From Escherichia phage DCP548: DNA of 64,000 nt. Location: sequence record PQ671645.1; one strand, 5' to 3'. Below the pieces are notes generated by a model. It was not told where the DNA came from. It worked only from the letters and a program-made list of their open reading frames with translations, and made no database searches. The first letter of the stretch is position 1. Every line of letters starts with the position of its first letter. A program made the position numbers and the translations under genes. This document shows positions 1,490 to 8,983 of the stretch, piece after piece.

Positions 1490-2149
1490 TTAACCTCGAT
1501 TCATAAATGCATTAAATATTTGGTCATCAACAGAAATTTCTAATTCGACTTCAATTGCTTCAGCCTTTTCTTCAGGTGGTAATTCGTATCCACATACTAC
1601 AATTTTTTCATCAATATCAAAATATACAGAAGCAATATGATTAATGTTATTTTCGGTTAAGTCTAAATCAACATCAACATCTTTTTGACCTACACTTAAA
1701 GGATAACTAATACGGGTTATTTTATTATCTTTAACAAAGAGTCCACCGACATACTCTGTACTACGTTTGAAGTTTACACGTTTCCGAAATGAAAGATATG
1801 ATGCATCTTTACCGTGAGCTCGGCTCATAGGACATAATGAATAGCTAGAATAAGAGATGTCAAATCCTACACCTTCAATATGAGCCAACGTGTCATGAGT
1901 AAACCAATTATAATCATATGCCAAATCCATTAAATTATAATATGTGAAAGGCACCGGATTAACATCATATGTTGTACCTTTAAAATCTGCCCAGGCAACG
2001 ATTTCGTTATCTTTAACAATTACAAAAATTACACCAATATGATATCCTTTATTATTTTCATTCGGCGTTATATTATAACATTGTGCATTAGGAAATTTAC
2101 CATATTTAAATGGCGCATTTTTGTGCATATAATAAATCATATTATTCAC
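1490..2149 (-). CDS. hypothetical protein
   Basis: 219-aa minus ORF; no motif recognised. Confidence 0.5.
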   Translation of the reverse strand: MNNMIYYMHKNAPFKYGKFPNAQCYNITPNENNKGYHIGVIFVIVKDNEIVAWADFKGTTYDVNPVPFTYYNLMDLAYDYNWFTHDTLAHIEGVGFDISYSSYSLCPMSRAHGKDASYLSFRKRVNFKRSTEYVGGLFVKDNKITRISYPLSVGQKDVDVDLDLTENNINHIASVYFDIDEKIVVCGYELPPEEKAEAIEVELEISVDDQIFNAFMNRG

Positions 2150-2435
2150 CTGTGATTTCGGTTACGATATCTTTGTTATCGAAATTAGGGTCACAATACA
2201 AAACATAATTGTACTGCATGATACCACCGGACTTAAGTTGTTCAACAACTTTATTAACCATATTAGGACGGTCTCGTTTAGTGATGTTCATGATATCAGA
2301 GAAGATTTGTTGTTCAACATCTTCTTGATTTGCAGTCATTGACCACTCACAGAGGTCTTTATCATAACCTGCCGTAACTGGAGCTGGTGCACATGATACT
2401 GCAAGTAAGATTGCTGCCAATGATAACTTTTTCAT
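2142..2435 (-). CDS. sp: Spackle-like periplasmic superinfection-exclusion protein
   Basis: 97 aa with signal peptide MKKLSLAAILLAVSCAPAPVTA then GYDKDLCEWSMTA, matching remembered T4 Sp (61.3); same position between 61 and 41. Confidence 0.7.
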   Translation of the reverse strand: MKKLSLAAILLAVSCAPAPVTAGYDKDLCEWSMTANQEDVEQQIFSDIMNITKRDRPNMVNKVVEQLKSGGIMQYNYVLYCDPNFDNKDIVTEITGE

Positions 2436-2459
2436 TTTAACTCCTTAGTTGATTTGATA

Positions 2460-2494
2460 GGACTACTATACTATAGTCCATCTATAATGTAAAC
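2460..2494 (-). promoter_or_regulatory. early promoter with flanking inverted repeat, upstream of sp
   Basis: Minus GTTTAC, about 18 nt, TATAGT; inverted repeat GGACTA/TAGTCC around the -10. Confidence 0.5.
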
Positions 2495-2498
2495 AAGT

Positions 2499-2747
2499 TT
2501 ATTCTTTTTCGCGAATAATAATTACTTGTTGAGGCTGCTGAGCAGATTTCTTTTCGGCAACGATAGACCAAATTAAAGTTCCAATCCAACCAATCATCGT
2601 CCAGTTAAAGAGTAAAGATACAAAGAAGATTGCTGTTGTGCTTTTTGTGCCACGAATAAGCGCGATTACCCAAGGCAGCATGTAAATGATGATTGAACCA
2701 ATACCTGCGATTAAAACCGCTACTGAACTAGCTACGAATAATTCCAT
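2499..2747 (-). CDS. Imm-family superinfection immunity membrane protein
   Basis: 82 aa, two TM segments, YMLPWVIALIRG...NWTMIGWIGTLIWS resembles the Imm_superinfect family consensus. Confidence 0.55.
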   Translation of the reverse strand: MELFVASSVAVLIAGIGSIIIYMLPWVIALIRGTKSTTAIFFVSLLFNWTMIGWIGTLIWSIVAEKKSAQQPQQVIIIREKE

Positions 2748-2808
2748 GTTAATTTCCTCTTGATTTGTTATGTTTATAGTATCTTATTTTAACTTTGGTG
2801 TAAACCAA

Positions 2809-3177
2809 TTAATTAAATTTGTTTAAACGTTCAATACACTGGACGTAGTTATTTGCGATTTGTTTCTGGGTAGGCTCTTTACCAGTTGTTTCAACATAGC
2901 GAATGAATGCGATTTCAGTAGCCTGTAGACAATGTTCTTTAACGCGTTGTTCTTTTGACAATGCTACAGTATCAGAATCACGATAACGTTGAGCATGAGC
3001 ATCAGCTTGAATCATTCGATTACCTACAGTAACCGGGTCTTCCACTTCAACTTTAGGTTGGTTGTACTGTTTAACATTCGGGTTATAAATCAATTGGCCA
3101 ACATTATTAGGGATAAAGCCATGGGCACCACATCCGGTTAATCCAAATACCATTGCTAAAGCGATTAATTTTTTCAT
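2809..3177 (-). CDS. putative lipoprotein
   Basis: 122 aa; N-terminal MKKLIALAMVFGLTGC lipobox. Confidence 0.5.
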   Translation of the reverse strand: MKKLIALAMVFGLTGCGAHGFIPNNVGQLIYNPNVKQYNQPKVEVEDPVTVGNRMIQADAHAQRYRDSDTVALSKEQRVKEHCLQATEIAFIRYVETTGKEPTQKQIANNYVQCIERLNKFN

Positions 3178-3198
3178 TTCAATTTCCTCTGTAGTTGA

Positions 3199-3235
3199 TA
3201 GAAAGATAGTAACACATTATGTAGTGCTTGTAAAC
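3199..3235 (-). promoter_or_regulatory. early promoter upstream of lipoprotein gene
   Basis: Minus GTTTAC, about 18 nt, TACTAT. Confidence 0.4.
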
Positions 3236-3237
3236 AG

Positions 3238-3450
3238 CTATTTTAAACTTTTGCGAAATTTGCGTTTTTCTTGACGAATCTGTCGTTTAGTCGGACGTAC
3301 AGCAAATTTAACGAAGTCCACTTTGCCGTGTGGAAACTTTTCAGATGCTTCACAGTCCATCATTAGTTCCCATCCTTCCAGAATAAGAGCTTTCCATTGC
3401 GTAGTTGATGCAAATTCGTATGTCGATGGTTTAAACACAGTTGAATACAT
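3238..3450 (-). CDS. small basic protein, member of a three-copy paralog family
   Basis: 70 aa ending ...FAVRPTKRQIRQEKRKFRKSLK; same C-terminal motif as ORFs at 31248..31427 and 31852..32049. Confidence 0.5.
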   Translation of the reverse strand: MYSTVFKPSTYEFASTTQWKALILEGWELMMDCEASEKFPHGKVDFVKFAVRPTKRQIRQEKRKFRKSLK

Positions 3451-3451
3451 A

Positions 3452-3643
3452 TTATCCTCTTAAATCGGCTTCAAAAACTTTCTCGTCATTAACAAATGCT
3501 TTAACTAATGCTTTGTTCACTTCAGCAAGTTGTACCGCAACCCACTCGATTTCTTCGCGATCACCTGATAACATGATATCTTTAGTGAACATCTCGCCGC
3601 TTTTAAACCAACCGATAAAAGTAACTTTAGTTAATTTGCTCAT
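3452..3643 (-). CDS. dmd: Dmd-like antitoxin (discriminator of mRNA degradation)
   Basis: 63 aa, VTFIGWFK...AEVNKALVKAF resembles remembered T4 Dmd (61.5); position upstream of 61. Confidence 0.6.
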   Translation of the reverse strand: MSKLTKVTFIGWFKSGEMFTKDIMLSGDREEIEWVAVQLAEVNKALVKAFVNDEKVFEADLRG

Positions 3644-3957
3644 ATTTCCTCACAGAATGCCCATTCAGCATGATAAACTGTAGCACCTTTAGTATCATTC
3701 ATTTGAACTACATCTACCGGAGAAATTACTCGATAGAGTCGTGGTTCACCTCCATAAGAGCGTGCTGCTCGTCCTGCATAAATCTTTGCTAAACCGATAT
3801 CTTCAGTAAAGAATACACGATCCAAGTTTTTCTTACGTCCAGTTTCGGACAGAACTCCTGTTTCTTCAGGAGGACAAAGCATGTTTTCGATGTTAGCTGA
3901 ACTACTTGAACCGTGATAAAAAATCTTAAATTCTGCTTTACAATCGATGGTTTTCAT
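3640..3957 (-). CDS. Arr-like ADP-ribosyltransferase-fold protein
   Basis: 105 aa; FYHGS...RVFFT...YAGRAARSYGGEPRLYRV parallels rifampin-ADP-ribosyltransferase motifs (FYHGT ... IYFS ... YIYIVEP); own early promoter upstream. Confidence 0.45.
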   Translation of the reverse strand: MKTIDCKAEFKIFYHGSSSSANIENMLCPPEETGVLSETGRKKNLDRVFFTEDIGLAKIYAGRAARSYGGEPRLYRVISPVDVVQMNDTKGATVYHAEWAFCEEI

Positions 3958-3963
3958 TTTGTT

Positions 3964-4012
3964 CTCCAGTAGTTGATAGGTCTATAATAACACAACTACT
4001 GGAGAAGTAAAC
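3964..4012 (-). promoter_or_regulatory. early promoter with 12-bp inverted repeat, upstream of Arr-like gene
   Basis: Minus GTTTAC, 17 nt, TATTAT; perfect inverted repeat CTCCAGTAGTTG / CAACTACTGGAG flanks the -10. Confidence 0.55.
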
Positions 4013-4387
4013 TTAAAAATGTAATTTAGATACATCTGCGTTGATTTCACTTTGGTTTGCGTCATATGCAATTAAACGAACCGCTTTAGATGGGTCATTC
4101 AATGCATAGAAATGATGGAACATTGCTCGAACGATATCACCATTTACGAGTTCTACCTGGATAGGAGAACCTTTTTCGAGTTGGAAATGTTCATAAGCTT
4201 TGATGGTTCGCAGATAATCAAGTTTTTGATTTCCGGCTCCAACGATTTGTACGATACGTTTGCCCATGTTTTCCATACGAGATACAATAGTTTTAGGAGC
4301 AAGAATAACGTAGGTTGCCAGCGGAGAAACTACTTCAACAGTTGTGTTTTCGGTGATTGCAGTAAAAATTGCTTGAGACATATTCAT
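4013..4387 (-). CDS. hypothetical protein
   Basis: 124-aa minus ORF, ATG at 4387 with GAGAGG RBS; early promoter upstream. Confidence 0.5.
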   Translation of the reverse strand: MNMSQAIFTAITENTTVEVVSPLATYVILAPKTIVSRMENMGKRIVQIVGAGNQKLDYLRTIKAYEHFQLEKGSPIQVELVNGDIVRAMFHHFYALNDPSKAVRLIAYDANQSEINADVSKLHF

Positions 4388-4416: not shown

Positions 4417-4446
4417 ATCATATCATGCCTAGAGGGAGATGTAAAC
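4417..4446 (-). promoter_or_regulatory. early promoter upstream of ORF 4013..4387
   Basis: Minus GTTTAC, spacer, TGaTATGAT extended -10. Confidence 0.5.
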
Positions 4447-4453
4447 CCCGAAA

Positions 4454-4469
4454 GGAGACCGAAGTCTCC
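4454..4469 (-). other. intercistronic RNA hairpin with UUCG tetraloop
   Basis: GGAGAC-UUCG-GUCUCC on minus-strand RNA just after the gene 41 stop, directly upstream of an early promoter. Confidence 0.5.
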
Positions 4470-4475
4470 TTTTTA

Positions 4476-5918
4476 TTAAAATTTTAACTCATTGGCTAAG
4501 CTATCTAGGTCAGCACGTGTTGCTTTGGCTTTACCTACGCGTTCCGTACGATTCACCTCTGCCTGACGCATCTGAGCACCTGCGTTTTCATTTACTGTGT
4601 TAGGTGTGTTCATGCCTTCTTGCTCAATCTCAACCCATTTCTGATTGCCTTTACGTACACCCATCAGGAATTTATTCCACTTATTCTTATCACCATATCG
4701 TGATTTGATTTGTTTGATAAGTTGTTGTTCAGCTTGTGCAAGTTCTTCGGTTTCAATTACGGCCAACATGAAATCTGCCGTTGCTGGTAAACCTGCTGAT
4801 TCTGCAATATCGCTCATGTTCATATCCGAAGCATCCCATGCTGCACGTCCTACTTGAGCTGCAGTCCATAGAACTGTTTCAGATTCTACTGCTAATGCAC
4901 GAAGTTCTTCTGCGATAGCTTTAACTAATGTGTAACTATTTTCAGTGTAAACTCTGATGCGACAAGACCCACAAATACCTAAGTAATCAACCATGATTAC
5001 AGATGGCACAAAGTTCTTCTTGAGTTTCAATTCATTAAGCAATGCACGGAATGTATTAGCATTAGCTCCGCCAGTAGGATACTGTTTAACTACTAAACGT
5101 CCTAATGTGGATTTTGAACGCCATTTTTCCATCTTGGCTTTATATTCAGCATAAGATACGTTACCATCATCGATATCATCGAGCGATACGTCAAGCATAT
5201 TTGCATCTATACGCTTAGCACAAACTTCTTCAGCCATTTCCATGGAAATATAAAGAACATTATGTCCTGTTTGAAGATAATCTGCAGCAAGTGAACAAAG
5301 GCCTAAAGATTTACCAACGTTAACACCGGCCATTAAAACATTCAGTGTACCGGTTTCAGCACCACCTTTAGTGATTTTATTCAGAATGTTTAATTTGAAC
5401 GGGACCTTACGTGCTTTGTTCAGATAAGAAAGCCAGCGTGCTTCGTAGTCTTCCATCCAGTCGTGTCCAACATAACTATCAAACGAAATTGAAAGTGCTT
5501 GACGCATAATATCAGGAATAGCTCCTACGTCAGGCATTTTCTTGTTACGTTGTTCTGGAGGTAGTTCAGCATTAGACTGAATCTCAATGATTTTGGATGT
5601 AGCATTATACATCGCTTTTTGCTGGACATATTTCTCAGTTTCTTTAACCAACCATTCGTGGTCTTCAGGAGTATCAGCCAATTTTTCAATTAGGTCTGAA
5701 GTTCCTTTATATTCGGCTTCAGTTAAAGAACTGTTATCTAAAGCCACCTTTAATGCATTTATAGATGGCATTGCATTATATTCGTTAACGTGGCTCTTTA
5801 TAATTTTAAATACATTTTTTGCCGGTCCACGCTCAAAATACTCAGAATCCATATAAGGCCAGACCTTAGAAAAATAAGCCTGGTCATATACTAGATGAGA
5901 CAAAATAATTTCTACCAC
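4476..5918 (-). CDS. 41: replicative DNA helicase (DnaB-like) gp41
   Basis: 480 aa; Walker A GVNVGKS; size and synteny match T4 gp41. Confidence 0.93.
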   Translation of the reverse strand: MVEIILSHLVYDQAYFSKVWPYMDSEYFERGPAKNVFKIIKSHVNEYNAMPSINALKVALDNSSLTEAEYKGTSDLIEKLADTPEDHEWLVKETEKYVQQKAMYNATSKIIEIQSNAELPPEQRNKKMPDVGAIPDIMRQALSISFDSYVGHDWMEDYEARWLSYLNKARKVPFKLNILNKITKGGAETGTLNVLMAGVNVGKSLGLCSLAADYLQTGHNVLYISMEMAEEVCAKRIDANMLDVSLDDIDDGNVSYAEYKAKMEKWRSKSTLGRLVVKQYPTGGANANTFRALLNELKLKKNFVPSVIMVDYLGICGSCRIRVYTENSYTLVKAIAEELRALAVESETVLWTAAQVGRAAWDASDMNMSDIAESAGLPATADFMLAVIETEELAQAEQQLIKQIKSRYGDKNKWNKFLMGVRKGNQKWVEIEQEGMNTPNTVNENAGAQMRQAEVNRTERVGKAKATRADLDSLANELKF

Positions 5919-5927
5919 GATAACTCC

Positions 5928-6269
5928 TTAAAAGAATTTAAATTTTTTCTTGGTCCGTTCATTAAAAGCTTGTTGTACTTGCATTGTAACACATTTTTCA
6001 ACATGTGGTGCAAGTTCTGCTTTTCTGTCCTGGTCAAGAACTGCAAAGTCCATTACGATTTTACCATCAACCCAGTCTAGTTTTGTAATATAGACTATAT
6101 GATGAGAACCATCTTCAAGTGTAATCAGAATCTCTTGAATGACATTTTCCATTGCTGAACGGATAATTTTAAGAGATTCATTAAACACTCGTTCTTTGCG
6201 AATGTCTTCCCCTTCCGAAGAAGGGGATTCATCAACGATTTCTAGATTTAAATCATCGAGATTATTCAT
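5928..6269 (-). CDS. 40: gp40-like head vertex assembly chaperone
   Basis: ORF-track frame 5928..6413 trimmed to the ATG at 6269 (MNNLDDLN...), overlapping the uvsX stop by 8 nt; call is by synteny between uvsX and 41. Confidence 0.55.
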   Translation of the reverse strand: MNNLDDLNLEIVDESPSSEGEDIRKERVFNESLKIIRSAMENVIQEILITLEDGSHHIVYITKLDWVDGKIVMDFAVLDQDRKAELAPHVEKCVTMQVQQAFNERTKKKFKFF

Positions 6270-7434
6270 CGAAATCTTCCATTTCGTCAAGGTCGTTTTC
6301 AATATCTGCTGCAGACGGAGCATCAGAAGCTTTAACAGGAACTTTAGTTGTTGCTTTGCAATTAATAAGGTCGTTAACAGCGTCATCAACTTCTTTAATA
6401 GAAGAGATAGCACCTAGTTTATATTTAGCTTCAATTGCATCTCGGAAAGGTTTGTGTTTAAACAACGGTCCCCAGAATTCTACACAATCAGTAGCTTTAG
6501 CACGCCATGATTTTTCTTCACGAATCATTTCACCTGTTTCTTCGTCAAGGAATTCACGAGCATACCAACCGGCTTTAGGCTTAACAACAAATCCAATTTC
6601 AGTTGCCATTTCTAACAAGCCACTGAATGGATCGATACCGCCGTCAAAATTAACCGTGATTGGGAAAGTAGATTTCTCTTTAACTGTACGAGATTTTTCT
6701 GCTTTCAACGTGAAGTCATAACCGGTCAATTCTGTACCTTCTTTAACCTGACGTTTAGAGATAAAGAATACAGTGTTAGCAGAGTAAAGAATACCTGTAC
6801 CACCACCCATAATCTCTTTAGGATATAGTCCGCCGATTTCCATTGCTGTATGGTTGATTGCAACACACGGAATATCTTTAATAGTCAGATAAGGAGTCAC
6901 AATACGGAACAGAGATTTAAGTGCCTTAGCACGAGACATATCACCTACGACTTTCTCGTTCAATGCATCTTCGGTTTCTTTCTTAGATGCAGTATTACCG
7001 ATTGAATCGATAAAGATAATAACTTTATCACCGCGTTCAATAGCGTCAAGCTGATTAGTCATATCAACTTTAAGTTGTTCGACAGACTGAATTGGTGTAT
7101 GAACTACGCGGTCCAAATCAACACCCATTGAACGGAAGTAAGATTCCGAAGCACCAAATTCCGAGTCATAAAACAAACAGATTGCATCTTTATATTTCTT
7201 CATATACGCTGCAACCATGGTCAGTCCAAACAACGTTTTAAAGTGTTTAGAAGGAGCAGCAAAAATAGTTAAGCCTGATTGCAACCCGGCATTCAGTGCA
7301 CCACCTAATGCAATATTCAACATCGGAATACGAGTAGGGACTTCATCACGATTATTAAACAGCTTAGACTTAGTCAAGTCTGCAGTCATTTTAGAAGTAG
7401 AAGCTTTAATCAGACGAGATTTTAAATCAGACAT
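6262..7434 (-). CDS. uvsX: UvsX RecA-like recombinase
   Basis: 390 aa, MSDLKSRLIKASTSK... near-identical in outline to remembered T4 UvsX. Confidence 0.93.
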   Translation of the reverse strand: MSDLKSRLIKASTSKMTADLTKSKLFNNRDEVPTRIPMLNIALGGALNAGLQSGLTIFAAPSKHFKTLFGLTMVAAYMKKYKDAICLFYDSEFGASESYFRSMGVDLDRVVHTPIQSVEQLKVDMTNQLDAIERGDKVIIFIDSIGNTASKKETEDALNEKVVGDMSRAKALKSLFRIVTPYLTIKDIPCVAINHTAMEIGGLYPKEIMGGGTGILYSANTVFFISKRQVKEGTELTGYDFTLKAEKSRTVKEKSTFPITVNFDGGIDPFSGLLEMATEIGFVVKPKAGWYAREFLDEETGEMIREEKSWRAKATDCVEFWGPLFKHKPFRDAIEAKYKLGAISSIKEVDDAVNDLINCKATTKVPVKASDAPSAADIENDLDEMEDFDE

Positions 7435-7533: not shown

Positions 7534-8082
7534 TTAACGAGCCCATTTGATAATTTCTGTAATCAAATTATTACGTTCGCTTGCATTAAATCCTATAACT
7601 TTGTTAGCACCATCATGATTAAGTAATTGATACGTTTGGATTTCGTTATGAATTGCAAACTCTTCAAAATATGAAATGACTGTATTAAAACCGAACGAAG
7701 ACAAAGTAATAAGGTCGTCTTCAAAACTTTCAGTCATTTCGTTACGTGTTAAAATAATTGTGAACACATCATGGTTTTGGCAAAGACGAACATAATCCTG
7801 TTCATAAACGTCAAGAACCGAGTCCGCATCTTGTCGAATACGTCCATAAACCCAGTTACTAATATATCCACGGTCTAACAGATAAATCTTAGTAGGGTCT
7901 AAATAATTCAACATCGTTTCGAAACAGCCAACTTCATTTCGAGACTTAACATCGAAACGTCCATCAACTGTTCGTTTAGGGAAATCAATCTTTACATATC
8001 TTTCACTAATTTCCATTATGTCATTAATGAAAGTTGTTTTACCAGCATTATCCGGGCCATCTACTAAAATAATTTTAGCCAT
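7534..8082 (-). CDS. P-loop kinase-like protein (dNMP/thymidylate-kinase-like fold)
   Basis: 182 aa; Walker A ILVDGPDNAGKTT and LLDRGYIS (DRY-like) motif; sits where T4 has beta-gt. Confidence 0.55.
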   Translation of the reverse strand: MAKIILVDGPDNAGKTTFINDIMEISERYVKIDFPKRTVDGRFDVKSRNEVGCFETMLNYLDPTKIYLLDRGYISNWVYGRIRQDADSVLDVYEQDYVRLCQNHDVFTIILTRNEMTESFEDDLITLSSFGFNTVISYFEEFAIHNEIQTYQLLNHDGANKVIGFNASERNNLITEIIKWAR

Positions 8083-8083
8083 T

Positions 8084-8983
8084 TTATTCCTCGATTACGA
8101 CATCTTCGTATTTAGGTATATTATACGGTGAAGAAATTAAAGCATTAAAGTAGATGAACTCACCAAGACCTGGATGGAATACTTCTTCAGGATTTTCGAA
8201 ATATTGAATCTTCGGACGTCCTTTAAGAATTTGATAGTACTCAGTTTTAGTTGGATTAAAAATTCGAATCAGCGCTTCTTCAGGATACTTATTTCTGTCG
8301 AAACTATTATTTGGATCAGTTATATAAAGCGGTTGACCTAATTGAATTGCGCATTCAACCACTTGTTCAAAACGATAGCATGGGTCACTAATTCGAAATG
8401 GATGAAAAATACCATCTAGATGAATAGGAGCCAAATCACCTACAAGACGCTGCATGACGGAAGGACGTATAACTTTCTGTGTTACGATAATCTTATTACC
8501 ATCCGCACCAGCGTTAACCAGCACTTCTTTTTGACGTTCATTCAACACAGTTGTTTGAAGTGAACGATTAACCGACAACATATCGGTTTTTAAGAATTCG
8601 TCAATATAAAAACGTGGTTTATTAGGGTCTGCGGTGATATTGAAATTGAATTCTACGTCAAAAGTGCCGTCATATCCAGTGATATCTGTGATTAGAAAAT
8701 CACAATCATAATAAGCAATTAATGAATCAACCACAAATTCATTTTCAGACCAGAAATATTTACGAGTGTTATACGCGTTATCTTTATACCATAATGGAAC
8801 AAACTTAAATTCCGGAAAAAGACGTTCACATTCTTTAATATCAGATGCATTACGTGGATATGTAATCACATCACCTGGATTAGCACGGTGCAAATGAAGT
8901 TGGAAGTTGCCATCCTTAAGGATAGCATACTGTCCAGTTTCATAAGACCGCATACTCAAGATAGGTACGCGGAAAATAGCCAT
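8084..8983 (-). CDS. hypothetical protein, candidate DNA sugar transferase (unsupported by motif)
   Basis: 299-aa ORF tightly coupled to gene 42 stop; no motif recognised; candidate role only by position in the glucosyltransferase slot. Confidence 0.45.
   Translation of the reverse strand: MAIFRVPILSMRSYETGQYAILKDGNFQLHLHRANPGDVITYPRNASDIKECERLFPEFKFVPLWYKDNAYNTRKYFWSENEFVVDSLIAYYDCDFLITDITGYDGTFDVEFNFNITADPNKPRFYIDEFLKTDMLSVNRSLQTTVLNERQKEVLVNAGADGNKIIVTQKVIRPSVMQRLVGDLAPIHLDGIFHPFRISDPCYRFEQVVECAIQLGQPLYITDPNNSFDRNKYPEEALIRIFNPTKTEYYQILKGRPKIQYFENPEEVFHPGLGEFIYFNALISSPYNIPKYEDVVIEE

Follow-up and report, generated by a model that had tools for sequence, protein, structure and literature searches.

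What does a small gene directly upstream of the antitoxin gene dmd contribute to infection by an RB69-like phage? The gene lies at 3640..3957 on the minus strand of a window of 64,000 nucleotides, the whole stretch of DNA that was analysed, from Escherichia phage DCP548 (sequence record PQ671645.1). Its open reading frame (ORF) runs from ATG to stop and encodes 105 amino acids. A sequence-only reading of the window had described the product as an Arr-like mini ADP-ribosyltransferase (ART) with its own promoter, on account of three motifs that resembled rifampin ADP-ribosyltransferase (Arr). All three are indeed present in the translation of this frame, namely FYHGS at residues 13–17, VFFT at residues 48–51 and GGEPRLYRV at residues 69–77. 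We refer to the protein as mini-ART and put the probability at roughly 0.6 that it is a minimal single-domain ART belonging to the H-Y-type branch, in which Arr and Tpt1/KptA are also placed.

Relationship to Arr

A profile search of 1.8 billion representative proteins returned 220 relatives of mini-ART. For comparison with known structures we used A2, an alignment of 47 diverse family members with a mean identity of 38%. Searched against the PDB, A2 found Arr chains 2HW2 and 9IAF as the best matches (E 0.0046), and Arr-2 was reached at E 0.07. Alignment of A2 with Arr-3 by hhalign, using a query sequence 100% identical to plasmid arr-3 genes, gave a probability of 94% and an E value of 1.2e-7 over 72 columns. 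The Pfam family Arr-ms (PF12120) matched 20 of the 47 mini-ART domain sequences at E <= 0.1 (best E 1.3e-10) and 31 of 46 multidomain relatives at E <= 0.001. Some relatives exceeded the 25-bit cut-off of Arr-ms, and many metagenomic ones carry a precomputed PF12120 label. The gathering score was not reached by the protein of the source phage itself, which gave no match at E <= 1. Since relatives match Arr-ms and the source-phage protein does not, the mini-ART family is best described as a divergent offshoot of Arr.

The profile alignments placed H15-G16-S17 of mini-ART on H19-G20-T21 of Arr and F49-F50-T51 on Y49-I50-T51. Further equivalences were E38 and R41 with Arr E40 and R43, A57 with Arr A57, and GGEPRLYRV with GRGRIFIVE. 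The alignment that had been made by eye was thus reproduced by hidden Markov model and profile methods. Both proteins share a first strand of the type [FY]-x-H-G-[TS], an E-x-G-R element in the donor loop (D-loop), an aromatic-x-T motif in the second strand and a glycine-rich turn before the third. The shared region covered Arr residues 13–80 in the search of A2 against the PDB, residues 14–89 of Arr-3, and positions 1–67 of 99 in the Pfam model. On this profile evidence mini-ART is homologous to the N-terminal two-thirds of Arr, the part that binds nicotinamide adenine dinucleotide (NAD+).

Could mini-ART then be a true Arr that modifies rifamycin-type antibiotics and so protects the host RNA polymerase on which the phage depends? 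In sequence Arr is its nearest family, and in fold it is among the nearest two; both proteins are small and single-domain, relatives bear the Arr-ms label, and Arr-family genes of actinophages have been interpreted in this way (PMC9503650). In the same survey, which covers viral NAD+/ADP-ribose systems, the only phages mentioned as carrying Arr-family genes are actinophages and Sinorhizobium phage PBC5 (PMC9503650). Yet the alignments end at about residue 80–89 of Arr, or about position 67 of 99 in the Pfam model, and mini-ART has 105 residues compared with 143–150 in Arr. The rifamycin contacts of Arr are made by N86 and K91 in the lid and by L130 and L133 in the C-terminal helix (10.64898/2026.05.04.722716); all four residues fall outside the shared region, and neither lid nor helix has a counterpart in mini-ART. 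The catalytic H-Y-D motif of Arr comprises H19, Y49 and D84, the last adjoining the rifamycin 23-hydroxyl (10.1101/2025.02.20.639278). Of these, mini-ART keeps the His, has Phe in place of Y49, and offers no conserved Asp that can be aligned with D84. Arr is chromosomal or integron-borne, whereas mini-ART is phage-borne. We therefore consider it extremely improbable that the protein is a genuine rifamycin-modifying enzyme. Of the term "Arr-like", homology at the profile level holds good, but identity with Arr does not, as only Arr residues ~13–89 are shared and the rifamycin-specific parts are absent. Relatives labelled "rifampin ADP-ribosyl transferase" should accordingly not be taken for antibiotic-resistance genes.

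Predicted fold and NAD+ site

An AlphaFold2 model of mini-ART, calculated with 42 homologues, reached a pLDDT of 85 and a pTM of 0.77. It contained strands at residues 13–18, 48–51, 72–81, 84–87, 94–97 and 99–104 and a helix at 54–68, arranged in the split β-sheet typical of ARTs. Foldseek returned Arr as the best PDB match (probability 1.00, TM-score 0.56), so that a lack of structural similarity to ART folds, which would have spoken against the sequence-only reading, was not observed. Other matches included PARPs, pertussis- and cholera-type toxins, DarT, RES/ParT and Rhs ART toxins, among others. The third match in a library of viral structures was a 94-residue phage protein named after Pfam Arr-ms (37% identity). 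Judged from the model, mini-ART has an ART fold.

The residues expected to form the NAD+ site are H15-G16-S17 in strand 1, S37-E38-x-G40-R41-K42-K43-N44 in the D-loop, F49-F50-T51 in strand 2 and Y60 in the following helix. H15 and G16 are invariant in the family and position 17 is Ser or Thr. E38, R41, F49, T51, Y60, G69 and G70 are conserved to at least 90%, although family identity averages 38%. The H-G-[ST] motif of strand 1 and the aromatic-x-[ST] motif of strand 2 that characterise the H-Y class are both found, the aromatic residue being Phe rather than Tyr. SExGRKKN, the most striking signature of the family, aligns with V32–H46 of Arr. This Arr loop is the counterpart of the D-loop and lines the NAD+ site (10.1101/2025.02.20.639278), and we therefore assign residues 37–44 of mini-ART as the donor (NAD+) loop. 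Y60 lies, by our count, exactly ten residues after F49. A Y-X10-Y spacing forms the nicotinamide pocket of diphtheria-toxin- and PARP-type enzymes, and by analogy the F49/Y60 pair may play the same part.

Several observations weigh against an active ART. The Tyr of the H-Y-D/E triad is replaced by Phe in 104 of 107 relatives (the remaining three have Tyr at position 49; T51 is likewise present in 104 of 107). No invariant acidic residue equivalent to Arr D84 or to the toxin Glu was found family-wide between positions 80 and 105: position 98 varies (E/A/D/S/K), D82 alternates between Asp and Asn, and conservation of E103 is confined to the T4-like clade. The D-loop is the weakest modelled part of the protein (pLDDT 59–73). 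Taken alone, the 105-residue sequence had no match in Pfam (E <= 1), NCBIfam, PADLOC or PDB sequences, which leaves a transitive or structural link to Arr. PDB searches with a profile of close homologues were likewise negative, and Arr was reached only with the broadened profile A2. The genomic context adds two further points. Linkage to dmd is limited to RB69/JS98-like phages, the gene being found elsewhere in unrelated early regions. Furthermore, no constant partner, for example an immunity protein or a hydrolase of the macro, NADAR or ARH type, was seen in more than 60 loci and five metagenomic contexts. As no reversing enzyme or other partner gene is consistently adjacent, and neighbours differ between phage groups, the context gives no clue to the target.

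A conserved NAD+ site together with the lack of an identifiable acceptor site might also be expected if the protein were, instead of a transferase, an NAD+ glycohydrolase acting to lower or remodel the pool of NAD+, and some ART-fold proteins are indeed NADases (PMC9503650). We regard this as very improbable, since NAD+ depletion is a host defence tactic that phages counter and not a known phage tactic, and positive evidence for it was absent from our data.

Comparison with other ADP-ribosyltransferases

Together with Arr, the C-terminal NAD+ lobe of Tpt1/KptA (PDB 9LD3, 7KW9) is the closest relative of mini-ART. Tpt1/KptA proteins (PF01885) are two-lobed, and mini-ART lacks both their N-terminal RNA-binding lobe and their Arg-His-Arg-Arg tetrad. 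The resemblance raises the idea of a Tpt1/KptA-like RNA 2′-phosphotransferase, or an enzyme capping phosphate ends of RNA or DNA, that would serve RNA repair after attack by host ribonuclease toxins. The similarity is confined to the NAD+ lobe, however. In addition, neither the Tpt1 Pfam family nor Tpt1 PDB sequences were matched, the sequence is closer to Arr, and the protein is slightly acidic (13 basic versus 15 acidic residues), which makes such an activity improbable.

T4-type phages are the classic viral ADP-ribosylation system, with the enzymes Alt, ModA and ModB. These proteins and, as predicted, mini-ART are ARTs of T4-type phages that act early or are injected; Alt and the Mod enzymes modify host proteins, and ModB in addition attaches RNA. 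RB69 carries modA and modB besides mini-ART. Alt, ModA and ModB have an R-S-E active site, comprise ~200–680 amino acids and belong to a different branch of the superfamily (PMC5512222). Their branch is marked by Arg in strand 1, S-T-S in strand 2 and a catalytic E-x-E motif. They show no sequence similarity to mini-ART, which has His instead of Arg in strand 1 and lacks an E-x-E motif. Likewise, none of the exotoxin-type ART families of Pfam matched mini-ART. AcrIF11 (PDB 6KYF) is a phage anti-CRISPR ADP-ribosyltransferase directed against Cas8f of type I-F CRISPR. A relationship to mini-ART was not shown at the sequence level, and its target has no bearing on the hosts and contexts of the mini-ART family.

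ART-PolyVal (PF18760) requires closer comparison, for it occurs in the same giant proteins as mini-ART, often adjoining it (relatives P0130, P0139, P0161, P0185 and P0210), and is likewise predicted to target components of the host as soon as the DNA has entered. It is nevertheless a distinct family of ~140 residues with an H-Y-D motif, and the two domains occupy separate stretches of these polyvalent proteins. The source-phage protein did not match PF18760, and only one of 47 relatives did so weakly (E 0.011). Since both domains can reside in one polypeptide, different specificities are likely. We therefore place mini-ART in no named family and regard it as a separate, minimal offshoot from the branch of Arr and Tpt1.

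Distribution and conservation

The gene belongs to a well-populated phage family. Its product matched PHROG 2110 (E 3e-60), 149 close homologues had 60–99% identity, and tblastn located the gene in 609 phage records, the hosts being mainly Escherichia, Klebsiella, Acinetobacter, Aeromonas, Enterobacter and Vibrio. The source is an RB69-like (Mosigvirus) T4-type phage; over the 1.3 kb around the gene, identity is 98% to phage vB_EcoM_TU01 and 97.7% to RB69. The counterpart in RB69 is RB69ORF040c, labelled "hypothetical protein" in GenBank. The ratio of nonsynonymous to synonymous substitutions was ~0.1 in comparisons with relatives in which synonymous sites were near saturation, and the sequences thus indicate strong purifying selection. 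Homology and this ratio rule out a chance ORF at 3640..3957. Two ORFs that overlap it on the plus strand (3441..3683 and 3670..3792) are presumably fortuitous, since it is the minus-strand frame that gives the strong family matches.

The assignment is not wholly new. GenBank entries of Pantoea phage Phynn, Klebsiella phage VAC66 and Acinetobacter phages PhaR5 and Apostate label this gene as a "(putative) ADP-ribosyl transferase", and Pfam Arr-ms picks up many relatives. In the literature searched we found no functional study of any member of the family.

In cellular genomes the domain appears to be nearly absent. A scan of 185,579 species-representative cellular genomes gave three matches, one of them evidently a phage contig; the scan was based on a pattern and its sensitivity is limited. 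A 178-kb contig filed as Flagellimonas marina (NZ_JBHSCL010000010.1) encodes a 105-residue mini-ART of the T4-like-phage type at 5965..6282 with phage-type genes around it. Rather than a cellular copy of the gene, this seems to be a whole T4-like phage genome within a bacterial assembly.

About 60 of the 150 representatives listed are multidomain proteins of up to 3,924 residues, each with one copy of the mini-ART domain. Partner domains comprise ART-PolyVal, NUDIX, 2H/Acb1-like phosphoesterase, portal, tape-measure, CHAP, GNAT, Toprim, ddrB-ParB and LPD23. We repeatedly observed mini-ART directly beside ART-PolyVal (relatives P0161, P0205, P0165, P0130, P0139 and P0210); in these polyvalent proteins a NUDIX domain follows in two cases and a 2H/Acb1-like domain in one. 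The domain thus looks like a recurring NAD+/ADP-ribose module of injected proteins, without a Pfam family of its own.

Conservation of mini-ART exceeds that of the genes around it. In JS98-like phages it was 89% identical, compared with 67% for gp41, 45–65% for Dmd and 38% for TifA; in more distant phages the values were 67–74% for mini-ART and 55–63% for gp41. Inhibitors that bind fast-evolving defence proteins diverge quickly. As mini-ART is conserved while such inhibitors diverge, it behaves like an enzyme with an invariant substrate.

These data also bear on the idea that the protein is a non-catalytic ART-fold sponge or decoy for NAD+ or for an immune signal derived from ADP-ribose, for example the Thoeris signal. 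Conservation of NAD+-site residues but not of the third catalytic residue would suit such a role, as would the small size of the protein, in the range of known phage sponges, and its predicted early expression from a counter-defence island. Polyvalent proteins are thought to be delivered with the DNA in few copies in order to act on the host at once (PMC5512222), and a single domain copy in such giant polyvalent or virion proteins favours a catalyst over a stoichiometric binder. Nor does the missing glutamate settle the matter, for active ARTs without a catalytic Glu exist, as exemplified by Arr with its H-Y-D motif and by Tpt1. We thus consider a sponge quite unlikely.

Predicted promoter and operon

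Promoter-like elements were found immediately upstream of the gene, all on the minus strand. The TAA stop codon of the preceding ORF is followed at once by a −35-like hexamer, GTTTAC (4007..4012), which corresponds to the T4 early −35 consensus (PMC1524935). It is separated by 17 nt from an extended −10 element, TGtTATTAT at 3984..3992 (TG at 3992..3991, TATTAT at 3989..3984), and transcription is predicted to start near 3977. In 4.5 kb, a promoter scan reported 23 promoter-like sites against 15 expected, and the match to the consensus alone is therefore weak evidence. Better evidence is the recurrence of the arrangement of terminator, GTTTAC and −10 element upstream of mini-ART in many related phages. 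A MotA-type middle promoter was rejected by inspection, as no TGCTT box precedes the −10 element.

The promoter is embedded in a 14-bp inverted repeat at 3962..4006 (arms 4006..3993 and 3975..3962), with the −10 box in the loop and the Shine–Dalgarno sequence GGAG (3964..3967), 6 nt before the ATG at 3957, in the 3′ arm. As RNA, this hairpin has a calculated stability of −21.5 kcal/mol (z −5.0), and none of 200 shuffled sequences was equally stable. We infer that GGAG is paired in read-through transcripts, which would be poorly translated, and free in transcripts from the predicted promoter, so that translation may be restricted to early-promoter transcripts. Strong sequestration of the ribosome-binding site was seen only in the RB69-like group; pairing was weak in relatives outside that group, and sequestration was not significant in four of five other phages checked. 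A promoter placed in a hairpin in this way also occurs between gene 41 and dmd of T4, but there the dmd Shine–Dalgarno sequence stays free.

Promoter-early stem-loop (PeSL) cassettes of this kind have been put forward as a means by which T4-type phages shuffle their accessory genes (PMC2839356, PMC4122927). By its sequence, the locus has the expected composition: an early promoter (GTTTAC-17-TATTAT) in or next to a 14-bp stem, a variable ORF and a hyperplastic region. Indeed, the presence of mini-ART at the gene 41/dmd spot varies between phages. T4 has no ORF there, and the annotation of RB69 lists no T4 similarity for the gene; T4 is for these reasons a convenient gain-of-function background.

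The dmd gene (3452..3643, minus strand; Pfam Dmd, E 3e-21), which encodes an antitoxin against RnlA/LsoA, overlaps the mini-ART stop codon with its own ATG (ATGA). The two genes are adjacent in 12 related loci as well, and they are probably co-transcribed and translationally coupled. The third cistron of the predicted operon is a 61.4/tifA homologue at 3238..3450 on the same strand (Pfam DUF7279, E 3.5e-20; PHROG 2375; annotated as 61.4 in RB69). TifA inhibits ToxN in T4 and RB69, and the corresponding early promoter directs transcription of dmd-tifA in T4 (PMC9391042). Nolan et al. likewise remarked that T4-like early genes seem to be expressed from the promoters of novel RB69 ORFs upstream of them. 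Because the overlap of stop and start leaves no room for a promoter in between, the promoter most likely serves the three genes mini-ART-dmd-tifA, with mini-ART as the first cistron. The earlier statement that the gene has its own promoter is thus borne out as regards a T4-type early promoter, which is present and conserved in position; such a promoter is not private to mini-ART, given the overlap with dmd and tifA next in line.

Gene neighbourhood

In the order of transcription, the region comprises the gene 41 helicase (4476..5918), an ORF041c-like gene (4013..4387), mini-ART, dmd, 61.4/tifA, imm.1, imm, sp and 61.2/adfA (1490..2149). The genes from dmd to adfA make up a counter-defence and superinfection island at 1490..3643 on the minus strand, in which sp encodes Spackle and the adfA product matched Pfam Anti-DarT factor A (E 2e-121). 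The inhibitors of the island are Dmd against RnlA/LsoA, TifA against ToxN and AdfA against DarT. Unlike in T4, imm and imm.1 of RB69-like phages are located between tifA and sp. Two IMG/VR contigs (L007 and L008) whose mini-ART is 98–100% identical gave no tifA match between dmd and imm.1, which suggests that this anti-ToxN gene is present or absent among near-identical phages.

The ORF041c-like gene (minus strand) encodes 124 residues assigned to PHROG 10668, of unknown function; searches of Pfam, NCBIfam and PADLOC gave no match. It was found only in the closest RB69-like loci and therefore seems to be a second inserted early-gene cassette beside mini-ART. Upstream of it, at 4417..4470 on the minus strand and directly after gene 41, we noted a terminator-like GC hairpin and a GTTTAC...TATGAT promoter. 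Farther away, at the position of the T4 β-glucosyltransferase gene (7534..8983, minus strand), lie a 182-residue P-loop ORF (GPDNAGKT) and a single ORF of 299 residues. The RB69 GenBank record splits the counterpart of the latter into ORF046c and ORF047c, which reflects either a frameshift in the old record or a real difference.

Possible targets and implications

If mini-ART is an ART, the following course of events can be envisaged. The gene would be transcribed in the first minutes of infection from the T4-type early promoter, as the first cistron of mini-ART-dmd-tifA. The protein would bind NAD+ through H15-G16-S17, F49/T51, Y60 and the D-loop SExGRKKN and would then attach one ADP-ribose to an acceptor of the infected cell that is conserved and is not a rifamycin.

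For this acceptor, a host or defence protein is a serious candidate at slightly under even odds, by analogy with AcrIF11 or with T4 Alt, ModA and ModB. A nucleic-acid end or a nucleotide-like small molecule is nearly as likely: Arr and Tpt1 use non-protein acceptors, a catalytic Glu is not conserved, and fusions to 2H and NUDIX domains occur. That no transfer takes place at all, and that the protein binds NAD+ or an ADP-ribose-derived signal, is unlikely. The most likely role is counter-defence or host takeover, and mini-ART would then act enzymatically alongside the stoichiometric inhibitors Dmd, TifA and AdfA encoded nearby.

The considerations on non-protein acceptors, the absent glutamate and the 2H/Acb1-like and NUDIX fusions, together with a very high conservation among phages of unlike hosts that suggests an invariant substrate, are also compatible with a narrower and quite speculative proposal, to which we give a small chance: in analogy to the action of Arr on rifampicin, mini-ART might ADP-ribosylate a hydroxyl or phosphate group of a conserved small molecule or nucleic-acid end, for instance a nucleotide immune messenger or the RNA ends left by a toxin RNase, and thereby disarm host defence. 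If true, this would be the first counter-defence by ADP-ribosylation of a target that is neither a protein nor an antibiotic.

As an ART, the protein would be the fourth ADP-ribosylating enzyme of T4-type phages, of a structurally different type, and with ~95–105 residues its domain would to our knowledge be near the smallest known for this fold. The assignment would also account for a domain that recurs in polyvalent proteins and has had no name. Mini-ART is more conserved than the replicative helicase, occurs in more than 600 sequenced phages and shares an island with Dmd, TifA and AdfA. Its substrate, once identified, could reveal a new host vulnerability or an enzymatic form of counter-defence.

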